A stretch of 64,000 nucleotides of DNA, taken from assembly GCF_002854065.1 (NCBI RefSeq), contig NZ_CP024147.1; one strand, given 5' to 3'. A program made the position numbers and the translations under genes. Positions 29,638-53,324 of this stretch are shown one piece after another; the stretch's first letter is position 1; each line of letters begins with the position of its first letter. The notes beneath the pieces are model-generated. The model was not told the DNA's origin. It searched no databases and saw only the letters and a program-made list of their open reading frames with translations. Source of the stretch: Escherichia coli. GTDB taxonomy: Bacteria; Pseudomonadota; Gammaproteobacteria; Enterobacterales; Enterobacteriaceae.

Positions 29638-29647
29638 TTAATTATCC

Positions 29648-30676: not shown

Positions 30677-32523
30677 GTCATAATTTTACCGCGCTGCATG
30701 CTGTGCAGCGTCATCTGCGAGAAGGTATTAATGGAAACATGGCGGGCGATATAGTGTTCCAGCACCAGGCCGAACAGATACGGACTGATGCCGGAAAAAC
30801 CTTCTTCATCCACCGTCAGTTCACAACTGACGCCACGCCCATAGACCAGTAGTCCGGAACCGGGCAGACGGCGGGTGACCGGGGTCGTTTTACAACCAAT
30901 CAGGCTGCGCACCTGGCGCGATTGCGGACTGTCATGAGCAGGAATAAACAGGTTCAGCAGATCTCGCAACGCCTGGCCGCCGGTACGGTGATCCAGATCG
31001 GCCAGCGGCAGATAATTAAAAGATAACTGGCGGATCAACCGCCATGCCATCTCACGTTCAGCCAGCGGGGGCTGCGGCGAGCGTGGCGGGCGGATAAGCC
31101 CTACGCCCGCCACCGGGATGGCCGCATCCACGGTTAGATCGTCCCGGCCATTGCGGGCAATAAGACAGGGCAGATCGCGGTTAGTGACCATGGCCGTGAT
31201 GGTGATGTGGCGCAGATTTTCCGGGTACGGCGCTTCATACTGGTCAACCAGCGACAGGAACACTTCCGAGCCCGTATAGGGGGTACGGGTGCCGTAACGG
31301 CGGGCGTTTTCTGATAAGCGGCGGGGCTCCCGGCGCAGGGAAAAATAACGTCCGTGATTGCCTTCATCATTATTGCGGGTGTGGTAGAGCGGGCGAAAGG
31401 CCATCTTCCGTGTGGTGTCGGTTTCCAGCCCTTCCACTTCCTGGACCGAGAACACCTCATAATCCAGCGGATGGGTTCTGTCCACCACCAGATGCTGTTC
31501 CGTCGTGCTGTGCGTGACATCGATCCGGGCGGTGACGCGGGGAAACAGGTTGATAACCGGGGTACAGAACAGGCTGAACTGTGCCGCATTTGTCTGGTGG
31601 ATCAGCCAGTCCGGCGGCAGGCGGTTCAGCAGGATAACAATCTCCGCCACGCCACCGTCAATTTTCTGTAATCCGGCAGACAGGCCTGTCGGGGTGAAAA
31701 AATAGAAGCGTTCCGGACAGGCAAAATATTCATGCAGCAGGTTATGACCGTGAAACACGTTCCACGCCAGCGGCAGCAGCCCCTGATCCGGCTCCAGGCC
31801 TTCGTACATAACGGGCTGTTGCAGATTCACATCCAGCGCGCCGTCAAAATGTCCCGGAATGCCAGCCAGGGTCGCGATGGCGCTGGTATGTAGAAGTTCT
31901 AACATGTGTGAGGCCGTACGCTCCTCGCCGCAGAGATAAAACGGCAGCCTATCCAGTCCTGCAAGCTGACTGAATGTTAGTTCACCAAAGGTGCGCAGGG
32001 TAATACGCAGCGCCCCGGCGACGTGAATGTTGGCCGGCAGGTAGCGGTGCAGGGCAGGCATATCCGGTGGCGCGGCGGTCAGTCGCGCCTCTTCGATGGC
32101 GAGCGGCCACAGCGTTACATCCTGGCTGCTGCGAAACTGGCAGGCAGTGCTTTCGCCTTCCGGAATGGCGGAGAAAAAGGCCGTGTCGCGCGGGACGGTA
32201 AATCCTTTCGCCAGATCGCCTTCTTCCGTATCGGGATGCAACTGCGCCACGCTCATTGAGGGCGTGGGTGTGACGTAATTGGGGCTGACCACTTCCAGCA
32301 GGCGCTGGGTGAAACGGGGGAATTCAGCGTCAATTTTTAGCTGCGTGCGGGCGGTCAGGAAGCTGAAGGCCTCGACCATTCGCTCTACATACGGATCGGC
32401 AATATCCGTTCCCTGCATGCCCAGCCGGGCGGCGACTTTGGGATGACGGGCGGCAAATTCGGCTCCCGTTTCCCGCAGATAGCTCAGTTCGCGGTTGTAG
32501 TATTCCAGTAGCCGTGGATCCAT
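30640..32523 (-). CDS. tssF: T6SS baseplate protein TssF
   Basis: 627-aa ORF; N-terminus MDPRLLEYYNRELSYLRETGAEFAARHPKVAARLG… is typical of TssF. Confidence 0.75.
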   Translation of the reverse strand: MDPRLLEYYNRELSYLRETGAEFAARHPKVAARLGMQGTDIADPYVERMVEAFSFLTARTQLKIDAEFPRFTQRLLEVVSPNYVTPTPSMSVAQLHPDTEEGDLAKGFTVPRDTAFFSAIPEGESTACQFRSSQDVTLWPLAIEEARLTAAPPDMPALHRYLPANIHVAGALRITLRTFGELTFSQLAGLDRLPFYLCGEERTASHMLELLHTSAIATLAGIPGHFDGALDVNLQQPVMYEGLEPDQGLLPLAWNVFHGHNLLHEYFACPERFYFFTPTGLSAGLQKIDGGVAEIVILLNRLPPDWLIHQTNAAQFSLFCTPVINLFPRVTARIDVTHSTTEQHLVVDRTHPLDYEVFSVQEVEGLETDTTRKMAFRPLYHTRNNDEGNHGRYFSLRREPRRLSENARRYGTRTPYTGSEVFLSLVDQYEAPYPENLRHITITAMVTNRDLPCLIARNGRDDLTVDAAIPVAGVGLIRPPRSPQPPLAEREMAWRLIRQLSFNYLPLADLDHRTGGQALRDLLNLFIPAHDSPQSRQVRSLIGCKTTPVTRRLPGSGLLVYGRGVSCELTVDEEGFSGISPYLFGLVLEHYIARHVSINTFSQMTLHSMQRGKIMTWPVRAGQRGSV

Positions 32524-32538
32524 CGGTCTCTCTCTGAA

Positions 32539-33033
32539 TTAAAAAAACGTAATGCGGCTCTGCTCCATATCCAGCGCGCTACGTACCCGGAATGCAGTCG
32601 GATACGGCTGCGTGAGGATCTCGCCGCGAATTTCAAACTGTAATGTGTTATGGCCACTCTGGCGGCGCTCATCCTGAAGTGGGATGATTTGCAGGGTGGA
32701 CGCTTTCAGCCGGGGTTCAAACCGGGTGATGGTTCGCAAAATGGCCCTGCGGATATCGTCCCACTTGTGCTCATACAGAAAGCTGCCCGCCAGTGGCGGC
32801 AGGCCGTAGTTAAGTACGGATGCTGCCGCGTACGGATAACGTGCAGCATCAATATCATCTTCATGGCTGACGGTGTTGAGCAGAAATGACAAATCCCGGC
32901 GGATGATCTCCTTAAGCTGAACCGGGCTGACGCTGATACCGTGGTCGCGTTTCTGGTTTGGGGCGTCGTCACACAGGCGGTCAAACAGCGTGGGCAGCAG
33001 GTGATTGCCTGGACGCTGGCGGGAAGCGCTCAC
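32539..33033 (-). CDS. tssE: T6SS baseplate protein TssE (gp25-like)
   Basis: 164-aa ORF …LFDRLCDD… with GTG start overlapping the upstream stop (GTGA). Confidence 0.7.
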   Translation of the reverse strand: MSASRQRPGNHLLPTLFDRLCDDAPNQKRDHGISVSPVQLKEIIRRDLSFLLNTVSHEDDIDAARYPYAAASVLNYGLPPLAGSFLYEHKWDDIRRAILRTITRFEPRLKASTLQIIPLQDERRQSGHNTLQFEIRGEILTQPYPTAFRVRSALDMEQSRITFF

Positions 33034-33860
33034 GCGTCGCTTCCTTCAGCGGTGTTAAAGGTACAGGTGGACAAATCCAGCAGGCTGATATCGCCGTGAC
33101 CGGTGAGCCACACCCTCTGACCCAGCGCCTGTACCAGTGTCTCTCCCGGACCGTCCTGCCAGACTGTTTCCCGGCACAGACGCAGGGAGTCGGCAGCCTT
33201 TTCAGAGCCGCTGTAGCGGGGAAACAGCTAGGCACTGTGTGTATCGCCATTGTTCAGGGTGACGTTGACGGGTTTCCAGATCAAATCGATCAGATGCGCA
33301 GGCTGCGGCGATTTCAGCGAACAGATTTGTGAAAACGGCAGCCAGATATATGCTCCGCCCGCGATCAGTTCGAGTACCGGACCGGTACGGGAGTCGCTGT
33401 CGCTAATCCAGTCAAATGCGCCGCCATTCCACTGCCCGGAAGTGTCTGTTATGGCCTCAAGCGCGCGGCTGCGGTGGGTGTCAGCTTCCTGCGCTTCACC
33501 ACGGGCGTTACAGGCGAGGGCGGTCAGCAGATCCTCCATCCAGGCGGGCGGCGGGAGAATAACACCGGGTCGCTGTTCGCCCTGAAAGCAGACGTGGCGG
33601 TATATCTCACAGCGGATCAGCTCGCCAAATACCTGCGCTTCGCGGGTATAATTTGCGTCCATCCGGGCGCATAGCTGGATCTGTTGCAGTGCCCGCGACC
33701 AGTCGCCTGCCACGCAAAATAACTGAAACAGGCTGTGGCGGCTGGAGGCCTGCGCTGGGTGCATCCTGACCTGCAGCTCTGCCATCTGAATGCCCTCCGC
33801 CAGGGAATAATCCCGCAGCAGTGCCGACAAGGTAGTCGGTAGCTTGTTAATGTTTGTCAT
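33030..33860 (-). pseudogene. tagJ: T6SS accessory protein TagJ/ImpE (SciE)-like, interrupted by an in-frame amber codon at 33228-33230
   Basis: 210-aa ORF stops at TAG; the same frame continues about 65 codons to a TGA that overlaps the tssE start, giving about 275 aa in total. Confidence 0.55.
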
Positions 33861-34761
33861 GAGATATCTCTCCGTGTTGTGCCGGGTTTATCCGGTAATG
33901 GCTGTCAATGCCAATGATGCGATGCTCTTTCCGTGTCAGATCGGGCAGTACGGTGCTATGCGCTGTTTCCGGGGCGTATTCCGGGGAAAGTAAATGCAGG
34001 ATATCAGGGGGAGTCTTTTCGACAGGCCAGGCTGTTTCACCTTCGCCGGTGGCATCCAGTACATTGAGAATAGCGTCAATGCTTAACCCGCCAGTGACCA
34101 TATCCTGCAATGTCTCGGCTTCGGTGACCAGGTCACGCAATGAATCCAGATCCTGCGAGGTGGGCTCTTCGTTAAAGGGAAAAGGATCAGCATGGCGATG
34201 AAGATCTTGTTCGGGAGATAACAACGCCTCGCGGTATTCCTGATAAAGTCGGGTCAGGGCATTCCCTTTTTCCGCACCTTCTCCGGTGGAGGAGGCTCCA
34301 TGAACAGGAATGATATCGAATGGATTTTGTGATGTCAGATGCTGCTGCCTGAACCAATCCAGATCCAGATATTCGGTTATTGCTTCCGACGTGATGGCAG
34401 TCTGCGATATCGTTTTTACTGCGCTCAGGTCCGGAGATGATGGATTGCCATGTACAAGGCACCATGAAGATAACCCCCATTCTATCAGGTCGCCTTCATT
34501 CAGACGCATACGGTGATGAGGTTCCACAATCTGGTCGTTTACCGTACAGCAATATTCGGTAGACTGATTGATAATCCACCATGCTTCTTCGTGGCGGGTC
34601 AGAGTGAGGGCAATCTTTACATCATCATTCACCTTAAAAACAGGAATCCAGGGAGAGGTAACGGTGAAGATAATTTGTGTTCCTTCAGTCGCGTAAATTG
34701 TGTTATCGGCGATCCCGTGCGCCTGTATTTTTTGGAGTCCCCACGTAATATTTGGTTTCAT
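33847..34761 (-). CDS. tagH: T6SS-associated FHA-domain protein (TagH/Fha-like)
   Basis: 304-aa ORF; N-terminal region fits an FHA-like pattern (…WWIINQSTEYCCTVNDQIV…LNEGDLIEWG…); first gene of the minus-strand T6SS block. Confidence 0.5.
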   Translation of the reverse strand: MKPNITWGLQKIQAHGIADNTIYATEGTQIIFTVTSPWIPVFKVNDDVKIALTLTRHEEAWWIINQSTEYCCTVNDQIVEPHHRMRLNEGDLIEWGLSSWCLVHGNPSSPDLSAVKTISQTAITSEAITEYLDLDWFRQQHLTSQNPFDIIPVHGASSTGEGAEKGNALTRLYQEYREALLSPEQDLHRHADPFPFNEEPTSQDLDSLRDLVTEAETLQDMVTGGLSIDAILNVLDATGEGETAWPVEKTPPDILHLLSPEYAPETAHSTVLPDLTRKEHRIIGIDSHYRINPAQHGEISHDKH

Positions 34762-35208
34762 TGTGTATCACTGTGTAGAGTGTTTCTTTCAAAAGAATAA
34801 GTTTTCTAAATTTTTAGATAAGCAATGCTGATCAATTTACTTTATCAATATAAGTTTTCGCGGAAATATATAGTGGTGATTTTTAATTTAATATATTCAT
34901 GGTGTGTATGAAATTGACTTGCTCTATTGAATATCACCATGAAAAAGATACTACCTGCTATATTACATAGTGTTCTGTGATATGCATCATTGTTTCATTC
35001 TGCCTTTTTGATAATTCTATTAATTAGAAGTTTTAATCGGTACAGTTATGTTTATGTATCATTTATATGTTATTACATCATTAGGTGTAACAGATGGACA
35101 CTCCTGTTTCGCGCAGTGCACTATATGGAAAGCTAACCAAATCTTTGTTTAGATCTTTGGAATCTGCGACAACGTTCTGTAAATTACGTGCTAACCCTTA
35201 TGTCGAAC
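34762..35208. promoter_or_regulatory. AT-rich intergenic region upstream of the minus-strand T6SS operon (former divergent promoter region)
   Basis: About 450 bp of strongly AT-rich non-coding sequence between tagH start and IS2. Confidence 0.45.
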
Positions 35209-35219
35209 TGGATTTGCCC

Positions 35220-36125
35220 CTATATTTCCAGACATCTGTTATCACTTAACCCATTACAAGCCCGCTGCCGCAGATATTCCCGTGGCGAGCGATAACCCAG
35301 CGCACTATGCGGATGCCATTCGTTATAATGCTCGAACGCCTCTGCAAGGTTCTTTGCTGCCGTTAACCCGTCTGGTTTGGGCATGATACTGATGTAGTCA
35401 CGCTTTATCGTTTTCACGAAGCTCTCTGCTATTCCGTTACTCTCCGGACTCCGCACCGCCGTGTTCTTCGGTTCAAGTCCCAACATCCGGGCGAACTGGC
35501 GTGTTTCATTAGCCCGGTAGCATGAACCATTATCCGTCAGCCACTCCACTGGAGACGACGGAAGATCGTTGCCGAAGCGGCGTTCCACCGCTCCCAGCAT
35601 GACGTCCTGTACTGTTTCACTGTTGAAGCCGCCGGTAGTGACCGCCCAGTGCAGTGCCTCACGATCACAGCAGTCCAGCGCGAACGTGACACGCAGTCTC
35701 TCTCCGTTATCACAGCAGAACTCGAACCCGTCAGAGCACCATCGCTGATTGCTTTCTTTCACGGCCACTCTGCCTGTATGTGCCCGTTTCGATGGCGGTA
35801 CAGCAGGTTTTCGCTCAAGCAACAGCGCATTCTGGCGCATGATCCGGTAAACACGTTTGGCATTGATCGCAGGCATACCATCAAGTTCTGCCTGTCTGCG
35901 AAGCAGCGCCCATACCCGACGATAACCATACGTGGGCAGCTCTCCGATAACATGGTGTATACGGAGAAGCACATCCGTATCATCAGTGTGACGACTGCGG
36001 CGGCCATCCATCCAGTCATCGGTTCGTCTGAGAATGACGTGCAACTGCGCACGCGACACCCGGAGACAACGGCTGACTAAGCTTACTCCCCATCCCCGGG
36101 CAATAAGGGCGCGTGCGCTATCCAC
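35220..36125 (-). CDS. insD: IS2 transposase OrfB (InsD)
   Basis: 301-aa DDE transposase ORF inside IS2. Confidence 0.92.
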
Positions 36126-36448
36126 TTTTTTGCCCGTCCATATTCAACGGCTTCTTTGAGGAGTTCATTTTCCATCGTTTTCTTGCCGAGCAGGCGCTGG
36201 AGTTCTTTAATCTGCTTCATGGCGGCAGCAAGTTCAGAGGCAGGAACAACCTGTTCTCCGGCGGCGACAGCAGTAAGACTTCCTTCCTGGTATTGCTTAC
36301 GCCAGAGAAATAACTGGCTGGCTGCTACACCATGTTGCCGGGCAACGAGGGAGACCGTCATCCCCGGTTCAAAGCTCTGCTGAACAATTGCGATCTTTTC
36401 CTGTGTGGTACGCCGTCTGCGTTTCTCCGGCCCTAAGACATCAATCAT
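36083..36448 (-). CDS. insC: IS2 OrfA (InsC) HTH regulator
   Basis: [25 protein letters not shown]… inside IS2. Confidence 0.9.
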
Positions 36449-36539
36449 CTGTTCTCCAATGACTAGTCTAAAAACTAGTATTAAGACTATCACTTATTTA
36501 AGTGATATTGGTTGTCTGGAGATTCAGGGGGCCAGTCTA

Positions 36540-39390
36540 CGAACTGACGCATTGGTTGCATCAGTTAATACAACAACCAGAGAATGACATTCACAATGTG
36601 CTTCGACATTATCAAATAACATCTGCTGATGTTGAGAAGGCGTTAATTCAGCAATTGAATATATTGCCTGCCGGAGCGAGTGTAATTAACGATTTTTCCC
36701 ATCATATCGATCTTTCTGTTGAAAAAGCCTGGATGTTGGCAAGTATCCGCTTTGGCGATCAAAAAATTCGTAGTGGATGGTTATTACTTGCCTGGTTAAC
36801 CACGCCAGAATTGTGTCGGGTGTTAAAAAATATTTGTGCGCCATTGGCAGAGCTACCGGTAGATGAACTATTAGATATTCTTCCGTCTTTAATCACTTCA
36901 TCTCCTGAATTAACAGAAATGCCTTATGACGGCTCGGATTTAAATTCTGCAGTACCGGGGGAAGCTAGCCAGGTCTTTGCCGGCGAATCAACTGGAAGCA
37001 AATCCGCGCTGGCGAAATACTGTCAGGACATGACTGCGCTGGCCCGTGAAGGCAATATCGATCCGGTCACCGGTCGCGAACACGAGATCCGTACTATGAC
37101 GGATATTCTGCTGCGCCGTCGCCAGAACAACCCGCTACTGACCGGCGAAGCGGGAGTCGGGAAAACGGCAGTGGTGGAAGGATTCGCGCTGGCGATTGCC
37201 GGGGGGGAAGTACCGCCTTCACTGCGTAACGTGCGGTTGCTTTCACTGGATGTTGGCGCGCTGCTGGCTGGGGCGTCCATGAAGGGTGAGTTTGAATCTC
37301 GCCTGAAAGCGTTGCTGGAAGAGGCCGCGCACTCGCCGCAGCCGGTAATCCTTTTTGTTGATGAAGTTCACACGCTGGTGGGCGCTGGTGGGCGCTGGTG
37401 GTACATCCGGCACCGTCGCATCACGGGCAGTGTGCAGTCCTGGCAGTATACGCCGCGCGGGCTGCTGGCGCTCCATACGGATGAAGAGAAACGGGAGACG
37501 CGCTGGCAGTACACCCCGGAAGGGCTGGTTGCCAGTCTGAGCAACGGCAATGGGGCTCAGTACCGGTTCAGCTACGACGGCGACGGACGGCTGACGGGAG
37601 AACAGCGCCCGGACGGTCTGATACGGATGTTTGCGCTGAATGCGGGCGGGTTCCCGGTCATCATCCAGACGCAGGGCACAGAAGGAGGGATGCGTAATGA
37701 GCGACAGGAGCGTGATGCGCTGGGCCGCCTGCTGCGCAGTGACACGCAGCACAGTACACGGACCTTCAGCTACAACCGTCTTGACCAGATAACGGAAGTG
37801 ACGCTCACCCCCACGGAAGAAGGGGAACGGCTGCACCACATGCAGGCGGACAGGGTGCGCTTTGCGTATGACCGCAGCGGCTGGCTGACGGCAGAGCACA
37901 GCGTGCACGGCAGCATAAAGTACCGGCGCGATGCGCTGGGCAATCCCACCGATATCACCTTACCGGACGGGCAGCATCTCAGCCATCTTTACTACGGCAG
38001 CGGGCATCTGCTCCAGACGGCACTGGACGGTATCACGGTCAGCGAATATGAGCGTGACAGTCTGCACCGTCAGGTGATACGCACGCAGGGGAAACTGGCG
38101 ACGTTCAGCGGCTACAACGCCGACAACCGGTTAAGCTGGCAGCGCAGCCTGCCAGGTGGCAGCCAGAATCCACAGCAGGCCGGTACTCCCCCGGCGCAGA
38201 ACGACAGCGTGACGGCGCGGGACTATATCTGGAACGCAGACGGTGAAGTCGGCGGCATCAATGACAAACTGCGCGGTTGCCTGGTGTTCAGCTATGACCG
38301 CAGCGGCTGGCTGACCAGCCGCACGGGGCAGATGTATGACCATGACCATTATTATTACGATAAAGCGGGCAACCTGCTGACGGATGAGTATCAGGGAGCG
38401 GTGCTGGACAACCGCCTGCCGGGCTACGGGCGTGACCGTTACCGCTATAACGAATGGGGCGAACTGACAGAGCGCAGGGACCAGCAGCTGGAGTGGAACG
38501 CGCAGGGCCAGTTAACGCGGGTCATCAGCAGCAACAGCGAGACGCGGTATCAGTACGATGCGCTGGGCAGGCGCATCATCAAGGCGACCAGCAATCTCCA
38601 TACCGACCGGGGAGAACGAAGCCGGACAACGTTTGTGTGGGAAGGGTTCCGGCTGTTGCAGGAGACAACGTGGCAGGGAAAGCGGACATACCTGTACGAC
38701 GCGGAACAGCCGTACACGCCGGTGGCGGCCATCACCGGGCGCGGAGAGAGTCAAAAAATCTGGTATTACCATACGGACCTGACGGGCACGGTACAGGAGG
38801 TGACCGCGCCGGACGGGACGCTGGTGTGGGCGGGCTACCAGGCGGGATTTGGTGAAAACCGGGGCGACATCAGCAACAGCGGGGCGTACTTTGAACAGCC
38901 GCTGCGGCTGCCGGGGCAGTATTATGATGAAGAGACGGGGCTGCACTATAATCTGTTCAGATATTATGCGCCGGAGTGCGGGAGGTTCATAAGTCAGGAT
39001 CCGATAGGGCTGGCGGGTGGAATAAACCTCTATGCTTATGCTCCTAACCCAATTAGCTGGATCGATCCCTTTGGACTGGATTTACACCATATAATACAGC
39101 AAGAAATTTGGAAGGAGTTCAAAACAGATCTTAAAAAAGTCACCGGATATGTACAAAATGTCACGAAAAAGGCAGCCGACATGACAAACCTAATCGATCT
39201 GGATAAACCTTTTCATGGTAATCACCCAGCTTATAGTCAATATGTAAGAGAAGCAATCGAAGACCTGAAGGCTAATAATAACTTAACGTTGAAAGGATTA
39301 AGAGATTTACAAGATGATCTTAAAAAGAAAATAGGTGAAGCTCAAAAGTCTGGCAAAAATCTAAATGATTATTTTAAATCGGGGTGCTGA
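36540..39390 (+). CDS. chimeric ORF: 5'-truncated ClpV/TssH N-domain and AAA+ D1 Walker A region fused in frame to an Rhs YD-repeat core with a C-terminal toxin domain
   Basis: Residues …[13 protein letters not shown]…[13 protein letters not shown] are ClpV-like, then YD-repeat sequence (…[13 protein letters not shown]…), then the DPFGL junction and a roughly 110-aa C-terminal tip; no native start codon, as the track start lies inside the IS2 inverted repeat. Confidence 0.75.
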
Positions 39391-39845
39391 TTATGAGATA
39401 CAAAAAGGTAACTGTTTCTTATGAGCCTGCAATCACAGGAAATAGTAAAGGAGGGTATTCAGTAGAAATAAAAGATAGACTCTCTTTTAATAGTCCTACG
39501 GAGAGAAAATACTTTGAGTCTTTTTTTGAAAATAATGATGAAAACTATAATAGAGTTTTTATCAATAATTTTGAAACTATTGATACAGTTTATCTAAAAA
39601 ATTTAATTTTATTTCCAAAACAAAAAAGGATAAAGGAAATTGATATGCTAATATTTTCCCCGCACAAACTCGGACTTAGTTTTATGATATCGGAGAAATT
39701 ATATAATATTATAACTAAATTTAAACTTCCTCCGTTCAATAAGATACCAGCTCAAATCAATACATTCAATACGAAGTATTTTTTGATCGGTTTCCCAATG
39801 ATACCAAAAGAAAGAATTGATTTAGATAAATCTATATTTTTTTGA
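39384..39845 (+). CDS. putative Rhs immunity protein (cognate to the toxin tip at 39060-39390)
   Basis: 153-aa AT-rich ORF whose ATG overlaps the rhs stop (ATGA); typical toxin/immunity arrangement. Confidence 0.6.
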
Positions 39846-41038
39846 TACAAAAAAAAGAAGTGAATTTAATTTCAAATCATATGATGAATTCATCAAAATG
39901 GATTACTCTATTATACCTAAAAAAATATACCCAGATGTATTTTATGATGTCGATGTTATCGGTTTTCAGGGCAAAGGGCTATTTTTTTCTGACAGACTGC
40001 TTGATGCAATACAAAATGCCGGGATTGTAGGGTTGCATATCGGTGACACGGAAATGGAAATGAATCCGTAGATTGATACAGGAACTTTCACTTTTAAAGG
40101 GATCTTTGGTGTCTGCGATTTTATCTTTCTGTTGGTTATTTAGCAATCCGGGAACGATATTAATCCGCTGAAGATCCTGATTTATCTACGGGGTAAATGC
40201 CCGAAATATAGAAGGTTTTATATTGGATCATATGAAAGGGGATCTTAACCTTGAAAATGCCATCAGGAAAGATGGTGGATTTTATCATAGTTATAATGAA
40301 AATAATCTTGCAGAGGGACGAAAATATTTAAGCACGGAAGAAATTAGCAAAATCCTCGAAAAGGGTAGTGTAACTGATGTTGATAGTAAAGGGCACTTTA
40401 AAGCAGGAGGATGTTGAATGAATAGTATAATAAATAAAAATATAAAAAAATAGATATGATTACTAAGGGTATTAAAAAATATCCTCTTGGAGAGGACAAG
40501 CAAGAGATCTCAAAATTAATTTGCGATTTTGAAAAAATGCCACGTAAAGAATGTAGTGTGTTTTATGGTGTTTTTTTTAATGATAGTGAACTAGTAGATA
40601 AATTAATTAAGATTGCAAGATTTTATGAGGGTGATGATAAAATAACCATAAACGTAATATCCTCTTTGGGAAATATGTTCGTGCGATACAAAATATATCC
40701 ATCAGAAGAATTATATAATCTTTTTTTTCAACTTGAAAAGTAAGAGGAAAGTTAATTATTATGTTTCTTTGTTCATTTTTAGATTTCCTCAATTTAGGAA
40801 TTATAAATTTAAATGGGACTATATTTTATCTATTCCAGATATTTCACCAAAAGATAAATCAAAAAGAAACTTTTACTCTATAGTCAATAATATCGTTTTG
40901 TCGGGAGAAACGATCCCTGTTGAGTATAAAAATAGAGTTATTAGCTTGCTGGAAATGTTTAGTAAGGGAAATATGGGAAGCGTGTATAATGATGAATATA
41001 TAGATTTAATTAATAGGCTAGTTAAGCAACACGGCTAA
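39846..41038 (+). other. AT-rich array of degenerate orphan toxin-tip and immunity ORFs (39898-40071, 40223-40417, 40456-40743, 40733-41038)
   Basis: Short ORFs in shifting frames, homopolymer A/T runs at frame breaks, and a degenerate Rhs junction-like sequence near 40160-40195. Confidence 0.45.
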
Positions 41039-41322
41039 GTCGGAACGTAATAATCTCGGTGAATATTGGTTTTTATTCTCCCGGATCTCCGCCAGTACTA
41101 ACAGGCGAAAATCCGGGAGGACTGATATTACGGCTGGATAATATCGTCAATAAACACCACACCATCAGTAGTACGCAACCAGCGCGGCGCTTTCAGTTTT
41201 GCCGCAAAGAACCAGATCAGTTCACAAAGCAGCCCCGTCAGGGGTTGTTCCATTTTAGATCCCTGCGCCTGTTCCGTCAGGATCTGGAGTAATACCTCGC
41301 AATATTCACACAATTGTAGTGG

Positions 41323-42735
<1,413 letters not shown>

Positions 42736-42973
42736 TGACACTCTATAAGAGTTTCAGCGAAGCGATCGCAGTGATCGGCCAGGTCTGTGAAATCGGTGGC
42801 AGAACTGAAAGGAATGGACAGTAAATCATAATCAGGGGTGAGGATTGTAGCCATAAGGCAACCTCCGATAAGTAGGCGTTAAAACCACCACCGAAGAGAC
42901 CAATCTTACGGGTGGTGGAATCGGGCGGAGTTGGTCTTACCGGCCTTATCGGATACCGGCGCATCTTTCGATG

Positions 42974-43811
42974 CTGGCAGGGAAAGCGGACATACCTGTA
43001 CGACGCGGAACAGCCGTACACGCCGGTGGCGGCCATCACGGGGCGCGGAGAGAGCCAGAAAATCTGGTATTACCACACGGACCTGACGGGCACGGTACAC
43101 GAGGTAACCGCGCCGGACGGGACGCTGGTGTGGGCGGGCTACCAGGCGGGATTTGGTGAAAACCGGGGCGACATCAGCAACAGCGGGGCGTACTTTGAGC
43201 AGCCGCTGCGGCTGCCGGGGCAGTATTATGATGAAGATACGGGGCTGCACTATAATCTGTTCAGATATTATGCGCCGGAGTGCGGGCGGTTTATCAGTCA
43301 GGACCCGATAGGGCTGGCGGGAGGAATAAACCTATATGCTTATGCGCCTAATCCGCTAAGTTATATTGATCCTCTTGGGCTTTGTAAATTAAGGGGAAGC
43401 GATGGGCGCTACAGAAGTGCACAGAATATTCAGGAAGAAATAGGCGGCCTACCCAATTTTGCAGGAAAAACTCCAGGAGAAATACGACAAACTTTGCGTA
43501 ATCGAGGTTATTCGTCGGTACAAGCGTATAGTGGAGGAGAGGTCTGGACAAAAGCATTACCTGACGGAAATACTGTTGCAGTGAGGCTTGATCCGGCAAA
43601 TCCTCGCTCACCTTCACATTATGCTGATGCTGTACCTCATGCTCATATTGAAACAGTTCCAACATCCAGTGTTTCTAATGGGAATTATCGCCCGCGAGAC
43701 GTGACTGGCAGGCATACTGCCACTGGTGGGGTTTCTGATCGAGGAACAAATCCGAATCATAACGCTGATGTTTACATTCCAATGTCTCCGGGACGATTCC
43801 CATATGATTAA
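42974..43811 (+). CDS. orphan Rhs C-terminal fragment (conserved core end plus alternative toxin tip); no upstream rhs body
   Basis: About 400 bp that are nearly identical to 38672-39070 by eye (core end through the DPxGL junction), followed by a different roughly 140-aa C-terminal domain. Confidence 0.7.
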
Positions 43812-43822
43812 TGTGAGGTTTT

Positions 43823-44086
43823 ATGAATATCCGAAATCAATATAATGAAGCCTTAAATAAATTAGAAGTTGATGTTAATGATGGTTTGAGAGATTTAATA
43901 AACATATATTGTGTGGCTATTGATTCTTTTGAAAATGATATCGTTGACTCGATTGCTTTATACGTGATTGATATGGGAAATAAAGATACTTGTCGATATC
44001 TACAAGAAGTCTTATCAGAGAATGAAGATCCTTATTTAGTAAAAGAATTTAATGCATGGATAAAAGAAATTAAGAAAAAATATTAA
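43823..44086 (+). CDS. putative immunity protein for the orphan Rhs toxin tip
   Basis: 87-aa AT-rich ORF 11 bp downstream of the toxin-tip stop. Confidence 0.55.
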   Translation: MNIRNQYNEALNKLEVDVNDGLRDLINIYCVAIDSFENDIVDSIALYVIDMGNKDTCRYLQEVLSENEDPYLVKEFNAWIKEIKKKY

Positions 44087-44091
44087 AATAA

Positions 44092-44133
44092 AAGCCGGGA
44101 AGGTTATAAAATCTTCCCGGCTTTTTATTTTTA
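44092..44133. terminator. bidirectional rho-independent terminator
   Basis: agccgggaag…cttcccggct stem flanked by A- and T-runs, between convergent ORFs. Confidence 0.75.
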
Positions 44134-44364
44134 ATTCTCGTTCAGTACACTAAACATCCCGTCCCGCATCCCCTTAACCGCCTGTTTAACCTGATAAAGT
44201 TCCCTGCGCAGTTCCTGTACTTCGTTGTTATCGGCAAGCAGGATCAGGCAGCCTTCCGAGATCTTCACAGTAACGCCCGTGCCGATCGAAAATTCCGCTT
44301 CTCTCAGCCATTTGGCGCTGATTTTGATCACCGGCGTGTCGCTGCTGTTGGGCAGATATCCCAC
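44131..44364 (-). CDS. SymE-like (AbrB-fold) toxin homolog
   Basis: 77-aa ORF …ISAKWLREAEFSIGTGVTVKISEGCLILL… resembles the SymE/SpoVT-AbrB swapped-hairpin family. Confidence 0.5.
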   Translation of the reverse strand: MGYLPNSSDTPVIKISAKWLREAEFSIGTGVTVKISEGCLILLADNNEVQELRRELYQVKQAVKGMRDGMFSVLNEN

Positions 44365-44477
44365 GGTACAACGGCGTTGTGTTTTGGAAATGGTGACTTC
44401 TGGCGTAATATCATGTTTAAGTTAGGGGCTTTCGTAGTCATACCCCGACTCTCCCCGGCCCTAAACACAACCCCCAC

Positions 44478-45257
44478 TCACCACAACCTAAACTCATCCG
44501 CATCCTGCCATGCCGGAAACTTTTCTCTATATTCCCGCAATGCCATCATCGACAGCTCCGCATCAATGCGCGTTGCCTGATGCGCGTCGGCAGTAGCGAT
44601 AATCTCGCCTTGTGGATTAATCACCCGGCTGTCACCGCGATAATGGCAGCCGTTGCCATCGCTGCCGACGCGATTGCATCCCGCCACATACGCCTGATTC
44701 TCAATCGCGCGGGCCGTCAGCAATGCCTGCCAGTGCAGAGAGCGCGGAGCAGGCCAGTTGGCGACGTACAGGGCGAGGTCATAATCGTTGAGATTGCGCG
44801 ACCACACAGGAAAACGTAAGTCGTAGCACACCAGCGGCAAAATACGCCAGCCGCGCCATTCCACAATCACTCGCGCATTGCCCGCTTTATAATGCAGATG
44901 CTCATCAGCCATTCGGAACAGATGACGCTTATCATAAAAATGTACCGTGCCGCCCGGCTCAACCAGCAAAAAGCGGTTAACTGAACCAGACTCCGTTTGT
45001 AATGCAACACTGCCTGCAATCAGCGCATTGCACTGCTGCGCTTTAGCTGTCATCCAGTTCACTACGTCATCTTGCGCTAGCGACGAAGCTGCCGCTTCCA
45101 TGGCAAAGCCGCTGGTAAACATCTCCGGTAGAACGATCACATCGCGCCCGGTAATACCTTCCAGTTGACGATCAAAATGACGCAGGTTGGCAGGACCATC
45201 CATCCACACCAGTGGTTGCTGCAAAAGCGTAATCTTCAAACCAGGCACGGTGTACAA
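44478..45257 (-). CDS. yafV: 2-oxoglutaramate amidase (C-N hydrolase) YafV
   Basis: Nitrilase-superfamily ORF; true start probably a few codons inside the track ORF. Confidence 0.9.
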   Translation of the reverse strand: MYTVPGLKITLLQQPLVWMDGPANLRHFDRQLEGITGRDVIVLPEMFTSGFAMEAAASSLAQDDVVNWMTAKAQQCNALIAGSVALQTESGSVNRFLLVEPGGTVHFYDKRHLFRMADEHLHYKAGNARVIVEWRGWRILPLVCYDLRFPVWSRNLNDYDLALYVANWPAPRSLHWQALLTARAIENQAYVAGCNRVGSDGNGCHYRGDSRVINPQGEIIATADAHQATRIDAELSMMALREYREKFPAWQDADEFRLW

Positions 45258-45401
45258 CTCCTTTATGCGAAGGGTTTTATAACTTTAACACCTTATCAGG
45301 CAGTTGCCTTAGCGCAGAATAAATTGATAACAAATGCTGATATTGGAAATATCTGATTTGCAAATTATCGTGTTATCGCCAGGCTTTAGGAGGTTAATAA
45401 C

Positions 45402-45875
45402 ATGGGCAGGATAAGCTCGGGAGGAATGATGTTTAAGGCAATAACGACAGTCGCCGCTCTGGTCATCGCCACCAGTGCAATGGCGCAGGATGATTTAACC
45501 ATTAGTAGCCTTGCAAAGGGCGAAACCACCAAAGCTGCGTTTAATCAGATGGTGCAAGGGCATAAGCTGCCTGCATGGGTGATGAAAGGCGGTACTTATA
45601 CTCCCGCACAAACCGTAACGTTGGGAGATGAGACGTATCAGGTGATGAGCGCGTGCAAACCGCATGACTGTGGCTCGCAACGTATCGCTGTGATGTGGTC
45701 CGAGAAATCTAATCAGATGACGGGGCTGTTCTCGACTATTGATGAGAAAACGTCGCAAGAGAAACTCACCTGGTTGAATGTGAACGATGCGCTTTCGATT
45801 GATGGTAAAACGGTGCTGTTCGCGGCGTTGACCGGCAGCCTGGAAAACCATCCGGATGGCTTTAATTTTAAATAA
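45402..45875 (+). CDS. ivy: inhibitor of vertebrate lysozyme
   Basis: 157-aa ORF with signal peptide and CKPHDC motif. Confidence 0.93.
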   Translation: MGRISSGGMMFKAITTVAALVIATSAMAQDDLTISSLAKGETTKAAFNQMVQGHKLPAWVMKGGTYTPAQTVTLGDETYQVMSACKPHDCGSQRIAVMWSEKSNQMTGLFSTIDEKTSQEKLTWLNVNDALSIDGKTVLFAALTGSLENHPDGFNFK

Positions 45876-45888
45876 TTAGCGGATAAAG

Positions 45889-45914
45889 AAACGGAGCCTT
45901 TCGGCTCCGTTATT
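45889..45914. terminator. bidirectional terminator between ivy and fadE
   Basis: aaacggagcctttcggctccgtt hairpin. Confidence 0.75.
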
Positions 45915-45917
45915 CAA

Positions 45918-48362
45918 TTACGCGGCTTCAACTTTCCGCACTTTCTCCGTCAACTTTACCGGCTTCGTCGCCAGCTCTTCCGGATCAAAGTCATCAACGT
46001 TAATACTGCGCAGACGGCTTTCTTCCGCTTTCACCAAAATGGCGGCTTCATCTTTATCAATCAGCCCCTTCGCCAGCGCGTTGTGCGCCAGTTCATCCAG
46101 ACGGGTAAATGGCAGATTTTTACCCAGCTCTTTACAGATCCGCTGATGAATCGGGTCGGCGGCAATCACATCCACCAACGCCTCTTCCAGTAAACCAACC
46201 GGATTATGCTCGCTCGGCGTCAGGTACTGACCGCGACCAATACGTGAGCGAGTGGCGTTCGGCACTTGTAAAATCTTCGCCACTTTATGATCCAGCTTGT
46301 CAGACGGTGCCAGATAATGACGTCCGGTCGGGAAGATCACTACATTCAGCAGCCCGGCAACCACGCGGTTCGGGAAGTTTTGCAGTAAATCGTCCATCGC
46401 CTGTTCAGCCTTATACAGCGCATCCTGTACGCCCCAGTGCACCAGCGGCAGATCGGCTTCATTACGGCCTTCGTCGTCATAACGCTTCAGAACGGCGGAG
46501 GCGAGGTAGAGCTGGCTTAAAATATCCCCCAGACGTGCCGAGATACGCTCACGACGTTTCAGGCTGCCGCCCAGCACTGCCATCGAGACATCAGAAAGCA
46601 GGGCGAGGTTGGCGCTCAGGCGGTTCAGGTGCTGATAGTAGCGTTTAGTGGCATCGCCGGTTGGCGTGCTGCTGGTTAAACCGCGCGTCAGGCCCAGCCA
46701 GAAGCTGCGAACTTTGTTGCTACCGACGTGACCGATATGTTTGAACAACAGTTTATCGAACGCGTTGACGTCATTGTTCTTCGCCGCTTCCATCTCTTCC
46801 AGCACGTACGGATGGCAACGAATCGCTCCTTGTCCGAAGATCATCATGCTGCGGGTCAGAATGTTAGCCCCTTCAACGGTGATGGCAATCGGTGCGCCCT
46901 GGTAAGCACGCGCCAGGAAGTTGCTTTGCCCGAGCATAATGCCTTTACCGCCGGTAATATCCATCGCATCAATAATCGACTGCTGCCCGCGGTGGGTACA
47001 GTGATACTTAACGATAGCCGACAGCACGGCAGGTTTTTCGCCGAGCATAATGCCGTAGGTAATCAGCGATGCCGCAGCATCCATTACATAAGCGTTCCCG
47101 GCAATACGCGCCAGCGGCTCTTCAATCCCTTCCATCTTACCGATAGAGATTTTGAACTGACGGCGAATGTGAGCATACGCGCCGGTTGCCAGCGCTACCG
47201 ATTTCACGCCGCCGGTTGAGTTGGAAGGCAGTGTGATGCCGCGGCCTACCGAGAGGCACTCCACCAGCATCCGCCAGCCTTGCCCGGCCATTTTCGGCCC
47301 GCCGATGATGTAATCGATCGGCACGAAGACATCTTTACCGCGCGTCGGTCCGTTCTGGAACGGTACGTTCAGCGGGAAGTGGCGACGACCAATTTCCACG
47401 CCCGGCGTGGTGGTCGGGATCAGCGCACAGGTAATGCCTAAATCTTCTGCACCGCCGAGTAATTTTTCCGGGTCGGAGAGTTTAAACGCCAGACCCAGCA
47501 CGGTCGCAATCGGTGCCAGCGTAATGTAGCGTTTGTTCCAGGTCAGACGCATCCCCAGCACCTGCTGGCCCTGCCATTCGCCCATGCAGACAATCCCGGT
47601 GTCCGGAATCGCGCCCGCATCGGAACCCGCTTCCGGGCTGGTTAGTGCAAAGCAAGGGATTTCCTGACCACGCGCCAGACGCGGCAGATAGTGATCTTTC
47701 TGCTCGTCAGTGCCGTAATGTTGCAGCAGCTCGCCCGGGCCTAATGAGTTCGGCACGCCGACGGTAATCGCCAGGATCCCGCTCACGCCGGAGAGTTTTT
47801 GCAGCACGCGAGACTGGGCATAAGCCGAGAACTCCAGCCCGCCGTACTCTTTTTTGATGATCATCGCGAAGAAACGATGCTCTTTAAGGTACGCCCACAA
47901 CTCCGGCGGCAGATCCGCCAGCTCATGAGTAATCTGGAAATCATTCGCCATCCGGCAGGCTTCTTCTACCGGGCCGTCGAGAAACGCTTGCTCTTCAGCG
48001 GTCAGGCGCGGCTGCGGATAGTTATGCAGCTTTTTCCAGTCCGGCTTGCCCTGGAACAAGTCGCCCTCCCACCAGGTGGTGCCCGCATCAATCGCTTCTT
48101 TCTCAGTGCGCGACATCGGCGGCATCACCTTACGGAAACCGCGAAATACCGGCGCGGAAATCATCGACTTACGCATAGGCGCAAAGTTAAATGGCACGAG
48201 GATAATGGCCAGAGGCACCAGTACCCACGCCGACCACAGACCAGCAACGCCGAGGGCGGCTGTCCAGGCGAGCAAAATCAGACTGCTGATAAATAAGCTC
48301 ACGCGGTGATAGAACAACGCGCCGAGCAGGACAACCGTAGCGAGAATACTCAAAATCATCAT
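45918..48362 (-). CDS. fadE: acyl-CoA dehydrogenase
   Basis: Start placed at [14 protein letters not shown]… (814 aa); the track ORF is extended upstream. Confidence 0.93.
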
Positions 48363-48601
48363 AACGAAAAGCCCCTTACTTGTAGGAGGTCTGACCACTT
48401 GTGATGATATGGTTGTAGTGGATGTAAAAACATTTAGCAATGCGTTTACAATATAATTACAACAAAGCTCACATTGTTGCTGTTTTTATCCGCACTTCAG
48501 GTCAAAAAGTCCTGGTCATAGCACCTGCCCGTACTTCTCGCTTTTGGCGGTATCCGGTACACTGCATTTTGTCTATTACATTTATGCTGAAGGATATCCT
48601 C

Positions 48602-49180
48602 ATGTACCAGGATCTTATTCGTAACGAACTGAACGAAGCGGCGGAAACGCTGGCTAACTTTTTAAAAGATGACGCCAATATTCACGCCATTCAGCGCGCG
48701 GCGGTCCTGTTAGCAGATAGCTTTAAATCCGGTGGCAAAGTGCTTTCCTGCGGCAACGGCGGCTCCCATTGCGACGCCATGCACTTTGCCGAAGAGTTGA
48801 CCGGTCGCTACCGTGAAAACCGTCCGGGCTACCCGGCGATTGCTATTTCTGACGTTAGTCATATTTCATGCGTCGGTAACGATTTCGGTTTCAATGATAT
48901 TTTCTCCCGTTACGTTGAAGCGGTAGGTCGCGAAGGCGATGTACTGCTGGGGATCTCCACCTCCGGTAACTCTGCAAACGTGATCAAAGCGATCGCAGCG
49001 GCGCGTGAGAAGGGAATGAAAGTGATCACCCTGACCGGTAAAGACGGCGGCAAAATGGCTGGCACGGCGGATATCGAAATTCGCGTACCGCACTTTGGTT
49101 ATGCCGACCGCATTCAGGAGATTCACATTAAAGTGATCCATATCCTGATCCAGTTGATTGAAAAAGAGATGGTTAAGTAA
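48602..49180 (+). CDS. gmhA: sedoheptulose-7-phosphate isomerase
   Basis: [21 protein letters not shown]… 192 aa SIS-domain protein. Confidence 0.94.
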
Positions 49181-49320
49181 GTCTGGCGTAGGCCGGATAA
49201 GACGTTTACGCCGCATCCGGCAATTGTGCACCGATGCCTGATGCGACGCTGACGCGTCTTATCATGCCTACAAATCTGTACGCGAACCGTAGGCCGAATA
49301 ATGCGTTCACGCCGCATCCG
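49181..49320. repeat. REP/BIME repeat cluster
   Basis: Repeated gccggataagacgtttacgccgcatccggca and gcctgatgcgacgctg motifs. Confidence 0.75.
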
Positions 49321-49385
49321 ACCTGAAAATTCTTAAATCAATCTTCGCCGGGGGCCATGCGCTCCCGCTGTTGTGGAGGTTACCC

Positions 49386-50153
49386 ATGTGCGAATTGCTC
49401 GGGATGAGCGCCAACGTCCCTACCGATATCTGCTTTAGTTTCACCGGTCTGGTGCAGCGTGGTGGTGGAACCGGGCCACATAAAGATGGCTGGGGCATTA
49501 CCTTTTACGAAGGTAAAGGCTGTCGCACATTTAAAGATCCGCAACCCAGCTTTAACTCACCTATCGCCAAACTGGTCCAGGACTACCCGATAAAATCCTG
49601 TTCGGTGGTGGCTCATATTCGCCAGGCTAATCGGGGCGAGGTGGCGCTGGAAAATACTCACCCATTTACCCGCGAGTTATGGGGGCGTAACTGGACTTAT
49701 GCCCATAACGGACAACTGACGGGCTACAAATCACTGGAAACCGGCAACTTCCGCCCGGTAGGCGAAACCGACAGTGAAAAAGCCTTCTGCTGGCTCCTGC
49801 ATAAATTAACGCAGCGTTACCCGCGCACACCGGGCAACATGGCGGCGGTATTTAAATATATCGCCTCACTGGCGGATGAACTGCGGCAGAAGGGCGTTTT
49901 CAACATGCTGCTTTCGGACGGGCGCTATGTAATGGCGTATTGCTCGACTAATTTACACTGGATCACCCGCCGCGCGCCGTTTGGCGTGGCAACGTTGCTG
50001 GATCAGGATGTGGAAATCGACTTCAGCTCGCAGACCACACCGAATGATGTGGTCACGGTGATTGCGACACAGCCGCTGACGGGCAATGAAACCTGGCAAA
50101 AAATTATGCCAGGCGAATGGCGCTTATTTTGCCTCGGGGAGCGTGTAGTTTGA
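49386..50153 (+). CDS. yafJ: class II glutamine amidotransferase-like protein YafJ
   Basis: [21 protein letters not shown]… N-terminal Cys nucleophile. Confidence 0.9.
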
Positions 50154-50864
50154 TGCCAGCTGTGGTTGCACAACTTCGTGGCTTAACGGCTTGCTGACCA
50201 CGTAACGACCATTGACCACAGAAACGGTCGGTGGCTTACGGGTTTGCTCAAAGTAGTCGTAACCCGGCTTCAGTTGCTCCCAGAAGTCCTTAAAGTTGGA
50301 ATATTTGTGGCGCTTCATATTAGCGTCGGTCATGCGGAACGGGTAAATGCTCACTTGCACGCTCGGCTGACCAAATACCAGTGCGCCAGTAACGAACTGG
50401 AAAATCTCGTCAATGCCCTGATTGGTCATCGCGTAGCAGCCGATGGAAACACAATCGCCGTGGATCATCAGGTATTTCCCTTCATAACCATGCGCACGGT
50501 CATAGGCATTGGGGAAACCAATATTAATCGCTTTGTAGTAACGGCTGTCTGGTTTTAACTGATTACGCTGGATGCTATAAAACCCTTCCGGGCTTTTGAA
50601 ATCGCCCTGACGCTGTTTTGGCCCTAAGCCGCCGGAATATTTACAGATTTTATAGCTGTCGAGCAGTTGATATTGCTCGCCCATTTTGACGTAGAGATCG
50701 AGCGTACGTTCTTCCTTGAAGATCTGGATGTAGACAGGGGATCCCATCAACTGCTGCTTATACTCTTTGCTCACTGGCGTGGTCGAGCTACTGCTGCCCA
50801 GCAAACCGGCAAACGAAACGCACGGGATCAACAACATCGCAAGAATTAATGCGATTTTACGCAT
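50124..50864 (-). CDS. yafK: L,D-transpeptidase-family protein YafK
   Basis: 246-aa ORF with signal peptide. Confidence 0.88.
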
Positions 50865-51019
50865 ACTGCTTATTCCTTGATAAAACGGTTACACACGCCA
50901 GGACGGCAAAATGGATCCCAAATCGGAATAGTCTGGATTTGGAAGGCTCACATTATCACCAAAAGAGTTTTACGCAAGCCTGTCGGCGCAGGGTTTACAA
51001 ATTTCATCGGCAGCGGGCT

Positions 51020-51298
51020 TTACCCAAAGAGCGCCGCGTGAGTTCCAGTTCTCTCAAATCGTAAAAGTTTATCGGTAAGTTTGTAAATCAGGATCCAGTC
51101 CGGTTCGACATGAGCATCGCGATAACCTTTCCATGAACCTTGCAGCGGGTGGTCTTTATAAACAGCTGGAAGCGGTAAAGTATTATTGATAAGAAGCGTC
51201 ATAAGATATTTCAATTTATTCATATCCTTATGACGCTTTTGTGCAAGTTTTACATCCTTTGAAAATTGTCCCGAGTATTCAATATCCCTTTGAATCAT
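51020..51298 (-). CDS. yafQ: RelE-family mRNA interferase toxin YafQ
   Basis: 92-aa ORF directly downstream of dinJ. Confidence 0.92.
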   Translation of the reverse strand: MIQRDIEYSGQFSKDVKLAQKRHKDMNKLKYLMTLLINNTLPLPAVYKDHPLQGSWKGYRDAHVEPDWILIYKLTDKLLRFERTGTHAALFG

Positions 51299-51300
51299 AT

Positions 51301-51561
51301 TTAAATTCCTAATTTATCAAATAAATCATCGGCGTCTTTGGCCTTATGAACATCAACGCCAGCTTCGCTGTTTTTGATTGATTGAATGGTTAATTGATTA
51401 GGCTCGCGTAAATCAAACGGCAATGCCTTTTCACGCGCGACCTTTGTGAGGGTTATGCGAACCAGGTCAGAGATGGTCAGCCCCATCCCGGCCAGTACGT
51501 CCGCCGCCTGATTCTTCAGATCTTCATCGATTCGGGCGCGAACAAACGCGTTAGCAGCCAT
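51301..51561 (-). CDS. dinJ: antitoxin DinJ
   Basis: 86-aa ORF MAANAFVRARIDEDLKNQAADVLAGMGLTISD…. Confidence 0.92.
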   Translation of the reverse strand: MAANAFVRARIDEDLKNQAADVLAGMGLTISDLVRITLTKVAREKALPFDLREPNQLTIQSIKNSEAGVDVHKAKDADDLFDKLGI

Positions 51562-51770
51562 TGGGGTATCTCCTGTGCTGTATATTTATTCAGCTTGAAT
51601 TGTAGCTCAAATGAGCAACAGCGACAATCTATGAGTAATTTAATAAACGGATGTTTTTACATAATTCACTGAAATATATTTATTAATTTTATAATAATGG
51701 TTTATTAAGTTTGTTCAGGTACGGGCCGGGATACACTGTAACATCAATGCATGACCAGCCATTATTGAAT

Positions 51771-53193: not shown

Positions 53194-53199
53194 TTTTGC

Positions 53200-53320: not shown

Positions 53321-53324
53321 CCAA

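Follow-up and report, generated by a model that had tools for sequence, protein, structure and literature searches.

Orphan rhs-CT/rhsI modules that arise by C-terminal displacement have been described for rhs loci (Poole et al. 2011, PMC3150448; PMC5727410), and both of these papers cite Jackson et al. 2009 on such modules. The Rhs arrays of Snodgrassella alvi hold pseudogenized orphan toxins together with immunity genes (Steele et al. 2017, PMC5727410), and recombination between main and orphan modules in rhs loci is referred to there by citation of Koskiniemi 2014. Furthermore, PAAR-RhsA-AHH and PAAR-RhsA-GIY-YIG (1,374 aa) are candidate T6SS effectors of Salmonella SPI-6 (PMC10469887, PMC11669294).

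Here, we describe an interval (39846-41038) of a 64,000-nucleotide stretch of Escherichia coli DNA, called the window in the following, which is very probably the downstream array of a locus for Rhs polymorphic toxins within a decaying T6SS island (aspV-yafV) of an E. coli lineage. The array contains the immunity gene of the current tip (Imm1) and an older, cut-down toxin fragment (CT2) with its immunity gene (Imm2), broken by one-base slips in T or A runs. The members of each pair are assigned as presumptive toxin and immunity protein from their position and conserved linkage. As the first-pass annotation had pointed out, the region is AT rich, with a GC content of 0.26 to 0.37 across 39200-41000 versus 0.5 to 0.63 in the flanks; A/T runs of at least 6 bases occur at 7.9 per kb in the array versus 0.94 per kb across the window (8.4 times denser). 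All four open reading frames (ORFs) that had been listed are present, at 39898-40071 (57 aa), 40223-40417 (64 aa), 40456-40743 (95 aa), and 40733-41038 (101 aa). The features of the locus are as follows.

35211-36539: IS2, separating the first ~37 codons of the clpV-rhs ORF from the rest.
36540-39078, plus strand: chimeric ORF of clpV (N-terminal ~330 codons) and rhs (C-terminal half), carrying CT1; first ~37 codons cut off by IS2.
39079-39390, plus strand: CT1, the tip after the DPFGL motif, an AHH nuclease of the HNH/EndoVII superfamily (PF14412).
39393-40071, plus strand: Imm1, whole gene, 225 aa when corrected, presumed immunity gene of the AHH tip.
39393-39845, plus strand: 5' part of Imm1, 150 codons and then a premature TGA, aligning with codons 1-150 of the intact GF3-3 gene.
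39837-39843, plus strand: Imm1 frameshift site, a T7 run (T6 in intact alleles), seen as a one-base gap versus GF3-3.
39847-40071, plus strand: 3' part of Imm1, codons 151-225 in the +1 frame by alignment to GF3-3, holding the 57-aa ORF.
40072-40190, no strand: non-coding spacer of 119 bp that travels with the AHH/Imm1 cassette, judged from cassette conservation, and contains the alleged junction-like motif.
40191-40214, plus strand: putative recombination junction, a 24-bp overlap in the alignments between the spacer side of GF3-3 and the CT2 coding sequence of PapRG-06-5.
40193-40417, plus strand: CT2 remnant, the last 74 codons and the stop of a 123-aa GIY-YIG-type Rhs toxin domain, including the 64-aa ORF.
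40418-41038, plus strand: Imm2, whole gene, 206 aa when corrected, broken twice; intact in PapRG-06-5 and AR_0077.
40418-40453, plus strand: native start of Imm2, an ATG after AGGAGG, 11 codons, and then a TAG resulting from an A8→A7 deletion.
40444-40450, plus strand: first Imm2 frameshift site, an A7 run (A8 in intact alleles, A6 in L017).
40456-40743, plus strand: middle part of Imm2, the 95-aa ORF from internal Met14, by alignment to the intact gene.
40721-40728, plus strand: second Imm2 frameshift site, a T8 run (T7 in intact alleles).
40729-41038, plus strand: 3' part of Imm2, by alignment to the intact gene, holding the 101-aa ORF (40733-41038).
41317-42569, minus strand: IS3-family insertion (NCBIfam transpos_IS3, E = 5e-91), the right boundary of the array, which splits a minus-strand hypothetical gene.

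A megablast search with 39000-41100 against 5426 RefSeq complete E. coli genomes gave matches in only five genomes and divided the query into two blocks. Block 1 (39057-40214) is found in GF3-3, XJ34, and XJ6-3, and block 2 (40191-41100) is found in PapRG-06-5 and AR_0077.

The resident Rhs ORF stops at 39390 and ends with a Rhs core end carrying the PxxxxDPxGL motif, followed by a 103-aa tip, and the array lies directly downstream. The tip matches the Pfam family AHH (PF14412) with an E value of 3e-10 over model positions 13-105 of 111. Adjacency of CT1 and Imm1 is also seen in GF3-3 and in five further loci (L017-L021); in all of these, AHH and Imm1 form an orphan pair located after a different tip. 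In E. coli GF3-3, an intact gene for a 225-aa Imm1 is located downstream of the AHH tip (L001, 6337-7014). In the window, an extra T in the run at 39837-39843 creates a TGA at 39843-45. The frame break had earlier been placed in the A8 run at 39849-39856; this run does exist, but it has the same length in the intact allele, and the indel is instead the T6→T7 change. The observation that protein-like sequence continues behind the stop of the immunity gene is borne out, since the 57-aa ORF can be extended upstream without a stop to 39847, directly behind the TGA. The ORF itself corresponds to Imm1 codons 169-225, and its ATG at 39898 arises from a T→M substitution that is absent in GF3-3.

Single-base correction restores uninterrupted proteins of 225 aa (Imm1) and 206 aa (Imm2). 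Corrected Imm1 has the same sequence (100% identity) as P0006, an E. coli protein of 225 aa, the locus of which is 99.9% identical to the window, and corrected Imm2 is 95 to 99% identical to P0001 and L002. Neither corrected protein has a Pfam match even at E ≤ 10 or an NCBIfam match at E ≤ 0.1, and both belong to small families with members in Escherichia, Salmonella, and Citrobacter only. Compared to GF3-3, Imm1 has 7 synonymous and 9 nonsynonymous differences, which are too few for a formal test of relaxed selection.

The spacer between Imm1 and the CT2 remnant is 97.7 to 98.5% identical in GF3-3, XJ34, and XJ6-3, and a distant BLAST search of the 5426 E. coli genomes gave no further match to 40072-40190 beyond those three. 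A degenerate Rhs-junction-like sequence had been proposed at 40160-40195. Its best local alignment to nine Rhs core ends scored 22, compared to 18.6 ± 2.4 for shuffled sequences, and 33 of 300 shuffles reached the observed score; the proposal is thus not upheld. In the intact relatives, the true DPxGL junction is located about 50 codons upstream of the start of homology, and that portion is absent in the window.

Upstream of the 64-aa ORF, its frame stays open as far as 40181, with homology to a Rhs tip setting in at about 40191-40193. From there on, the sequence (40193-40417) is 97 to 99% identical to the end of a 1374-aa Rhs protein of E. coli PapRG-06-5 and AR_0077, which is encoded downstream of VgrG and a DcrB-like gene; the gene next to it, for 206 aa, is intact. 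Taken together, the CT2 remnant and Imm2 (40193-41038) are 98 to 99% identical to the corresponding sequence of these strains. In these two strains, the full CT2 domain comprises the 123 residues after DPLGL. As a single sequence, CT2 matched GIY-YIG only weakly (E = 0.01), but 12 of the 27 aligned family members matched PF01541 (GIY-YIG), the best with an E value of 5e-10. The family has 45 cluster-level relatives, several of which are located at the C termini of long proteins and many behind Rhs/YD-type core ends, and its invariant residues are Y19, G21, R30, H34, R57, and E60. Furthermore, the AlphaFold model of the domain (pLDDT 93.6) shows the beta-beta-alpha-beta-alpha core fold. A Foldseek comparison of the model with the PDB gave no significant match, and a PDB sequence-profile search with the family returned only UvrC (E = 0.16). 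The family-level sequence matches and the predicted fold identify the full-length CT2 domain as a GIY-YIG nuclease. In the window, the remnant covers only about residues 51-124; the half with GIY, YIG, Arg30, and His34 is missing, as is the Rhs core. Because only the part from R57/E60 onward is kept, the fragment cannot be an active nuclease. The CT2-Imm2 pair is also linked in Salmonella, with 82% identity for CT2 and 55% for Imm2.

The two overlapping ORFs downstream of CT2 had been suspected to be one gene split by a frameshift, and this is indeed the case: the run at 40721-40728 is T8 versus T7 in intact alleles. A further break had been overlooked, that is, the A7 run at 40444-50 (A8 in intact alleles), which detaches the native start at 40418. 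The 95-aa ORF between the two breaks also occurs in at least 27 public contigs, and in sister strains, its ATG at 40456 opens an intact 193-aa Imm2 ORF. Imm2 is predicted, with moderate confidence (pLDDT 75), to be an all-helical protein forming a generic ARM/HEAT-like solenoid of 11 helices, and the T8 break lies in the middle of it.

The interval had been read as displaced Rhs tips and immunity genes left behind after tip replacement. This reading holds for 40193-41038, that is, for the CT2 remnant and Imm2, which have clear counterparts in other Rhs loci. It does not hold for the 57-aa ORF, which is no orphan but the C-terminal third of the resident Imm1, intact with 225 aa in GF3-3 and another E. 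coli. The suggestion that some of the leftovers still protect is unlikely to apply to the alleles of the window, because both immunity genes are interrupted, Imm2 within its predicted helical-repeat fold. The intact Imm1 (225 aa) and the 193-aa Imm2 of the sister strains could confer protection.

Between 40191 and ~43383, the window and PapRG-06-5 are collinear, the IS3-family insertion aside, and collinearity with L002 resumes at 42570. In our model, the ancestor would have had a PapRG-like order of rhs, CT2, and imm2. A cassette of AHH, Imm1, and the spacer would then have recombined into this rhs gene and replaced its end. The right-hand crossover may have occurred within CT2, deleting the core end and the catalytic half and leaving the 3' 60% of the tip behind. 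GF3-3 keeps the 24 bp of 40191-40214 and then jumps into a Rhs core end (EETGLHYN...); with these 24 bp of the CT2 remnant retained, GF3-3 therefore appears to be derived from a window-like arrangement by further deletion. Slip-strand mutation in the homopolymers would have added one T to the T6 run of Imm1, removed one A from the A8 run of Imm2, and added one T to its T7 run. These mutations were probably fixed under relaxed selection, after loss of most T6SS structural genes and the clpV-rhs fusion. The decay of the island itself is directly visible: an internal stop interrupts tagJ, the remaining T6SS structural genes are missing between tagH and the array, two IS elements have inserted, and in a genome 99.9% identical over 44000-64000 (CUWW06), everything from tagJ to the IS3-family element is deleted. 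With most T6SS genes lost and clpV fused to a truncated rhs, the lineage can therefore presumably no longer fire these toxins.

All three breaks are single-base changes in runs of 7 to 8 bases, a kind of error to which some sequencing platforms are prone, and the window's own genome is absent from the 5426 RefSeq complete E. coli genomes. The breaks could thus be sequencing or assembly errors in genes that are really intact. However, the T7, A7, and T8 alleles are identical in eight of eight independent assemblies (L004-L011) from different projects, short-read metagenomes included, and the truncated products are recorded in 16 to 53 contigs each, all labeled E. coli except for one Shigella flexneri record. 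Furthermore, near-identical loci have been assembled with T6 and with T7, and therefore, the methods do resolve these runs. Recurrence in independent assemblies effectively refutes the error explanation, to which we assign next to no probability. The alleles of related loci differ in informative ways. Imm1 has T6 in L012, L013, and L017-L021 and is intact in L012 and L013. In L017-L021, the T6 run in Imm1 is combined with T7 in Imm2 and with A7 or A6 in the upstream Imm2 run; with T7 in Imm2, the 193-aa ORF from ATG 40456 is therefore intact in these strains. Additional run-length variants are T8 at 39521-27 (L004 and L011) and A6 at 39919-25 (L019 and L021), and the T run of Imm1 is T5 in P0008; homologs with only 60% identity also carry a frameshift in this T run.

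If the breaks are real, it is imaginable that the tracts are functional, either as a reversible, phase-variable immunity switch or by leaky recoding that yields protective full-length Imm1 and Imm2. This would agree with the different run lengths seen in close relatives (T5, T6, or T7 at 39837; A6, A7, or A8 at 40444), and the exact wild-type amino acid sequence would result from a +1 slip either at TTT-TGA or inside T8. The A7 leader of 11 codons stops 2 nt before ATG 40456 and so permits reinitiation, and the 193-aa ORF is intact in sister strains. Moreover, strains with the T7 allele retain an intact ORF ending in AHH, in L005 and L010 an uninterrupted one of 986 aa with an apparently intact AHH domain, and low-level recoding could explain this coexistence. 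An intact AHH ORF next to a truly dead Imm1 would be hazardous if expressed, so that there must be either a silent or inactive chimera or residual protection by the 150-aa fragment or by leaky full-length Imm1. A phase-variable contingency locus is characterized by a long repeat tract with frequent, reversible length changes in a gene that is otherwise maintained, and known contingency loci and slippage sites have tracts longer than 6 to 8 bases. The tracts in the array are only 6 to 8 bases long, their existence is explained by FF and KK codons in an AT-rich gene, and the indels are spread over at least five different runs, as random decay predicts. In addition, the T6SS no longer works, and the entire array is gone from a near-identical genome. 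On balance, a function of the tracts is improbable. The possible recoding routes, +1 slippage of the ribosome at the shifty stop UUU UGA (T7 followed by GA) or transcriptional slippage on T7, A8, or T8, are likewise doubtful; no Shine-Dalgarno-like stimulator was seen upstream of the T7-TGA site. It is still less probable, and indeed very unlikely, that the fragments of 57, 64, 95, and 101 aa are independent small genes with functions of their own. Every fragment has a start codon and is called by gene finders in many assemblies, but each aligns end to end with a portion of a longer intact gene at 95 to 100% identity, the 57-aa ORF owes its ATG to a lineage-specific substitution, and the start of the 101-aa ORF is a TTG located within the overlap. 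The Pfam, NCBIfam, Rfam, and promoter/terminator scans gave no signal in favor of separate small genes. Rfam found no RNA family within 39-41 kb, and the 15 promoter or terminator sites, compared to 10.4 ± 3.5 expected, are uninformative in AT-rich DNA. ORFs on the minus strand of the interval were dismissed as short, without homologs, and expected by chance in AT-rich sequence.

Decay of an Rhs array by one-base slips thus remains our preferred reading, and its value is modest: the locus clearly illustrates the assembly of Rhs arrays through tip replacement and their erosion after loss of the delivery machine. Two families of "hypothetical proteins" without a Pfam or NCBIfam model can now be regarded as presumptive immunity proteins for Rhs nucleases of the AHH and GIY-YIG types. 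The AT-rich toxin/immunity cassettes have unusually many A/T runs, and sister strains have repeatedly acquired frameshifts at the same sites; such fragments should be merged in annotation as pseudogenes rather than listed as four small genes. The natural pairs of intact and broken alleles, at 99.5 to 99.9% locus identity, would make simple immunity assays easy.

As in loci with orphan rhs-CT/rhsI modules, an array of paired toxin tips and small ORFs follows the rhs gene and is AT rich, in contrast to the GC-rich core. Other strains have a full-length Rhs protein with a near-identical counterpart of the displaced tip, and the neighboring array is conserved between strains with different main tips. 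The occurrence of AHH/Imm1 as an orphan behind other tips fits, by analogy, the pattern of C-terminal displacement and orphan modules in enterobacterial rhs loci (PMC3150448; PMC5727410). Unlike in textbook orphan modules, the displaced CT2 has no core sequence, no DPxGL motif, and no catalytic half, and therefore, it cannot be recruited again by core-mediated recombination. The main rhs gene also differs from that of orphan-module loci, being a clpV-rhs chimera without the N-terminal delivery region. With respect to main-orphan recombination, as far as it is reported in PMC5727410, the AHH/Imm1 pair, an orphan in sister strains, could have been joined to the main core in the window by the same process, although the product here would be a chimera that cannot be delivered.

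The Salmonella SPI-6 effectors carry the same two types of nuclease tips on Rhs, and the CT2 carrier of E. coli is also 1374 aa long. The Salmonella CT2 homolog, 82% identical, is likewise followed by an Imm2 homolog; the loci of the SPI-6 paper were compared by description only. In contrast to the window, the SPI-6 units are intact, bicistronic effector/immunity units within T6SS clusters, and the partner of the GIY-YIG effector has a CdiI-type annotation there, while Imm2 has no Pfam or NCBIfam match.

The arrays of S. alvi come close to the window in their decay: immunity genes that outlive their toxin gain inactivating mutations, and N-terminally truncated toxin fragments accumulate (PMC5727410). 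Nonsense mutations are described for S. alvi, whereas the lesions here are homopolymer frameshifts; moreover, the immunity gene of a current tip that is still intact is broken too, and the T6SS is largely deleted. In sum, C-terminal displacement followed by pseudogenization is an already known phenomenon, and the interval is well-documented genomic debris with two uncharacterized immunity families. The features of the array fit slip-strand decay under relaxed selection, and pseudogenized orphan immunity genes have already been reported (PMC5727410).

The window's T6SS genes (28591-34761) are reduced to tssA/impA, tssG, tssF, tssE, tagH and a tagJ pseudogene, and the Rhs array that follows combines a chimeric reading frame, mobile elements and a third module. 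The features concerned are as follows.

33030-33860, minus strand: tagJ (ImpE family), pseudogene with an in-frame stop after codon 210
35211-39390 (IS2 included): clpV-rhs chimeric ORF, consisting of a clpV part, half of the Rhs core and the AHH tip
41128-41313 and 42702-42854, minus strand: parts of a 154-aa hypothetical gene, split by an IS3-family element
41317-42569: the IS3-family element
42382-42504, minus strand: match to isrC "Hfq-binding sRNA" (Rfam, full-length, 150 bits)
42912-43811: orphan Rhs core end with a ~140-aa tip, third module of the array
43823-44086: 87-aa ORF 3' of the ~140-aa tip
58637-58759, plus strand: match to isrC "Hfq-binding sRNA" (Rfam, full-length, 150 bits)

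The complete genome of E. coli CUWW06 is 99.9% identical to the window across 44000-64000 and carries the same annotated internal stop in tagJ. It is missing the segment corresponding to ~33860-41316, which comprises tagH, the clpV-rhs chimera, the presumed immunity gene Imm1, the remnant of the GIY-YIG-type tip CT2 and its partner gene Imm2. Since an IS3-family element directly adjoins tagJ in CUWW06, these data suggest that the whole array was lost by an IS-adjacent deletion.

In the chimera, clpV codons 1 to ~330, with the AAA+ Walker region, are followed by the C-terminal half of an Rhs core, which begins near codon 695 of a 1,374-aa Rhs, and by the AHH tip. IS2 (35211-36539) cuts its first ~37 codons off from the remainder; in sister assemblies without IS2, the 986-aa chimeric ORF is unbroken. 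The 154-aa hypothetical protein, which had no match in NCBIfam, is encoded by an unbroken gene in PapRG-06-5 (L002 6938-7402). Four sister assemblies carry, within the same IS3-family element at window position 41801/41802, a 2.27-kb insertion whose reverse transcriptase (RVT_1+GIIM) is of the group II intron type. Just 3' of Imm2, between this gene and the convergent minus-strand hypothetical gene, lies an inverted repeat with perfectly matching 9-bp arms (CTCCCGGAT...ATCCGGGAG, 41089-41121); it is also kept in PapRG-06-5 and AR_0077, and may be a terminator shared by both genes.

The first isrC match falls within the IS3-family element and overlaps orfA. The second has an equal score and is located just upstream of an ORF (58772-59818) of the same length as the element's transposase, and therefore, site and ORF are probably a second copy of the element. 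The isrC model appears to pick up IS sequence at both sites.

In contrast to Imm1 and Imm2, both ORFs of the third module (42912-44086) are unbroken in the window; neither was matched by NCBIfam. Homopolymer frameshifts in this lineage are not limited to the Rhs array, because the core gene dkgB (20396-21201) is broken across two frames at an A7 run (20748-20754; ...EAKK|...) and is annotated as frameshifted in CUWW06 as well. Imm2 of AR_0077 (L003 6228-6848) differs at codons ~18-23 (GVKNISLGE versus GIKKYPLGE) because an A run has lost one base and the frame is restored a few bases downstream, and is otherwise intact; this is a repaired frameshift within a functional-looking allele. Between Salmonella enterica (L014-L016) and E. 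coli, the GIY-YIG tip shares 82% identity but the downstream immunity homolog only 55%; divergence has been much faster in the immunity protein than in the toxin.
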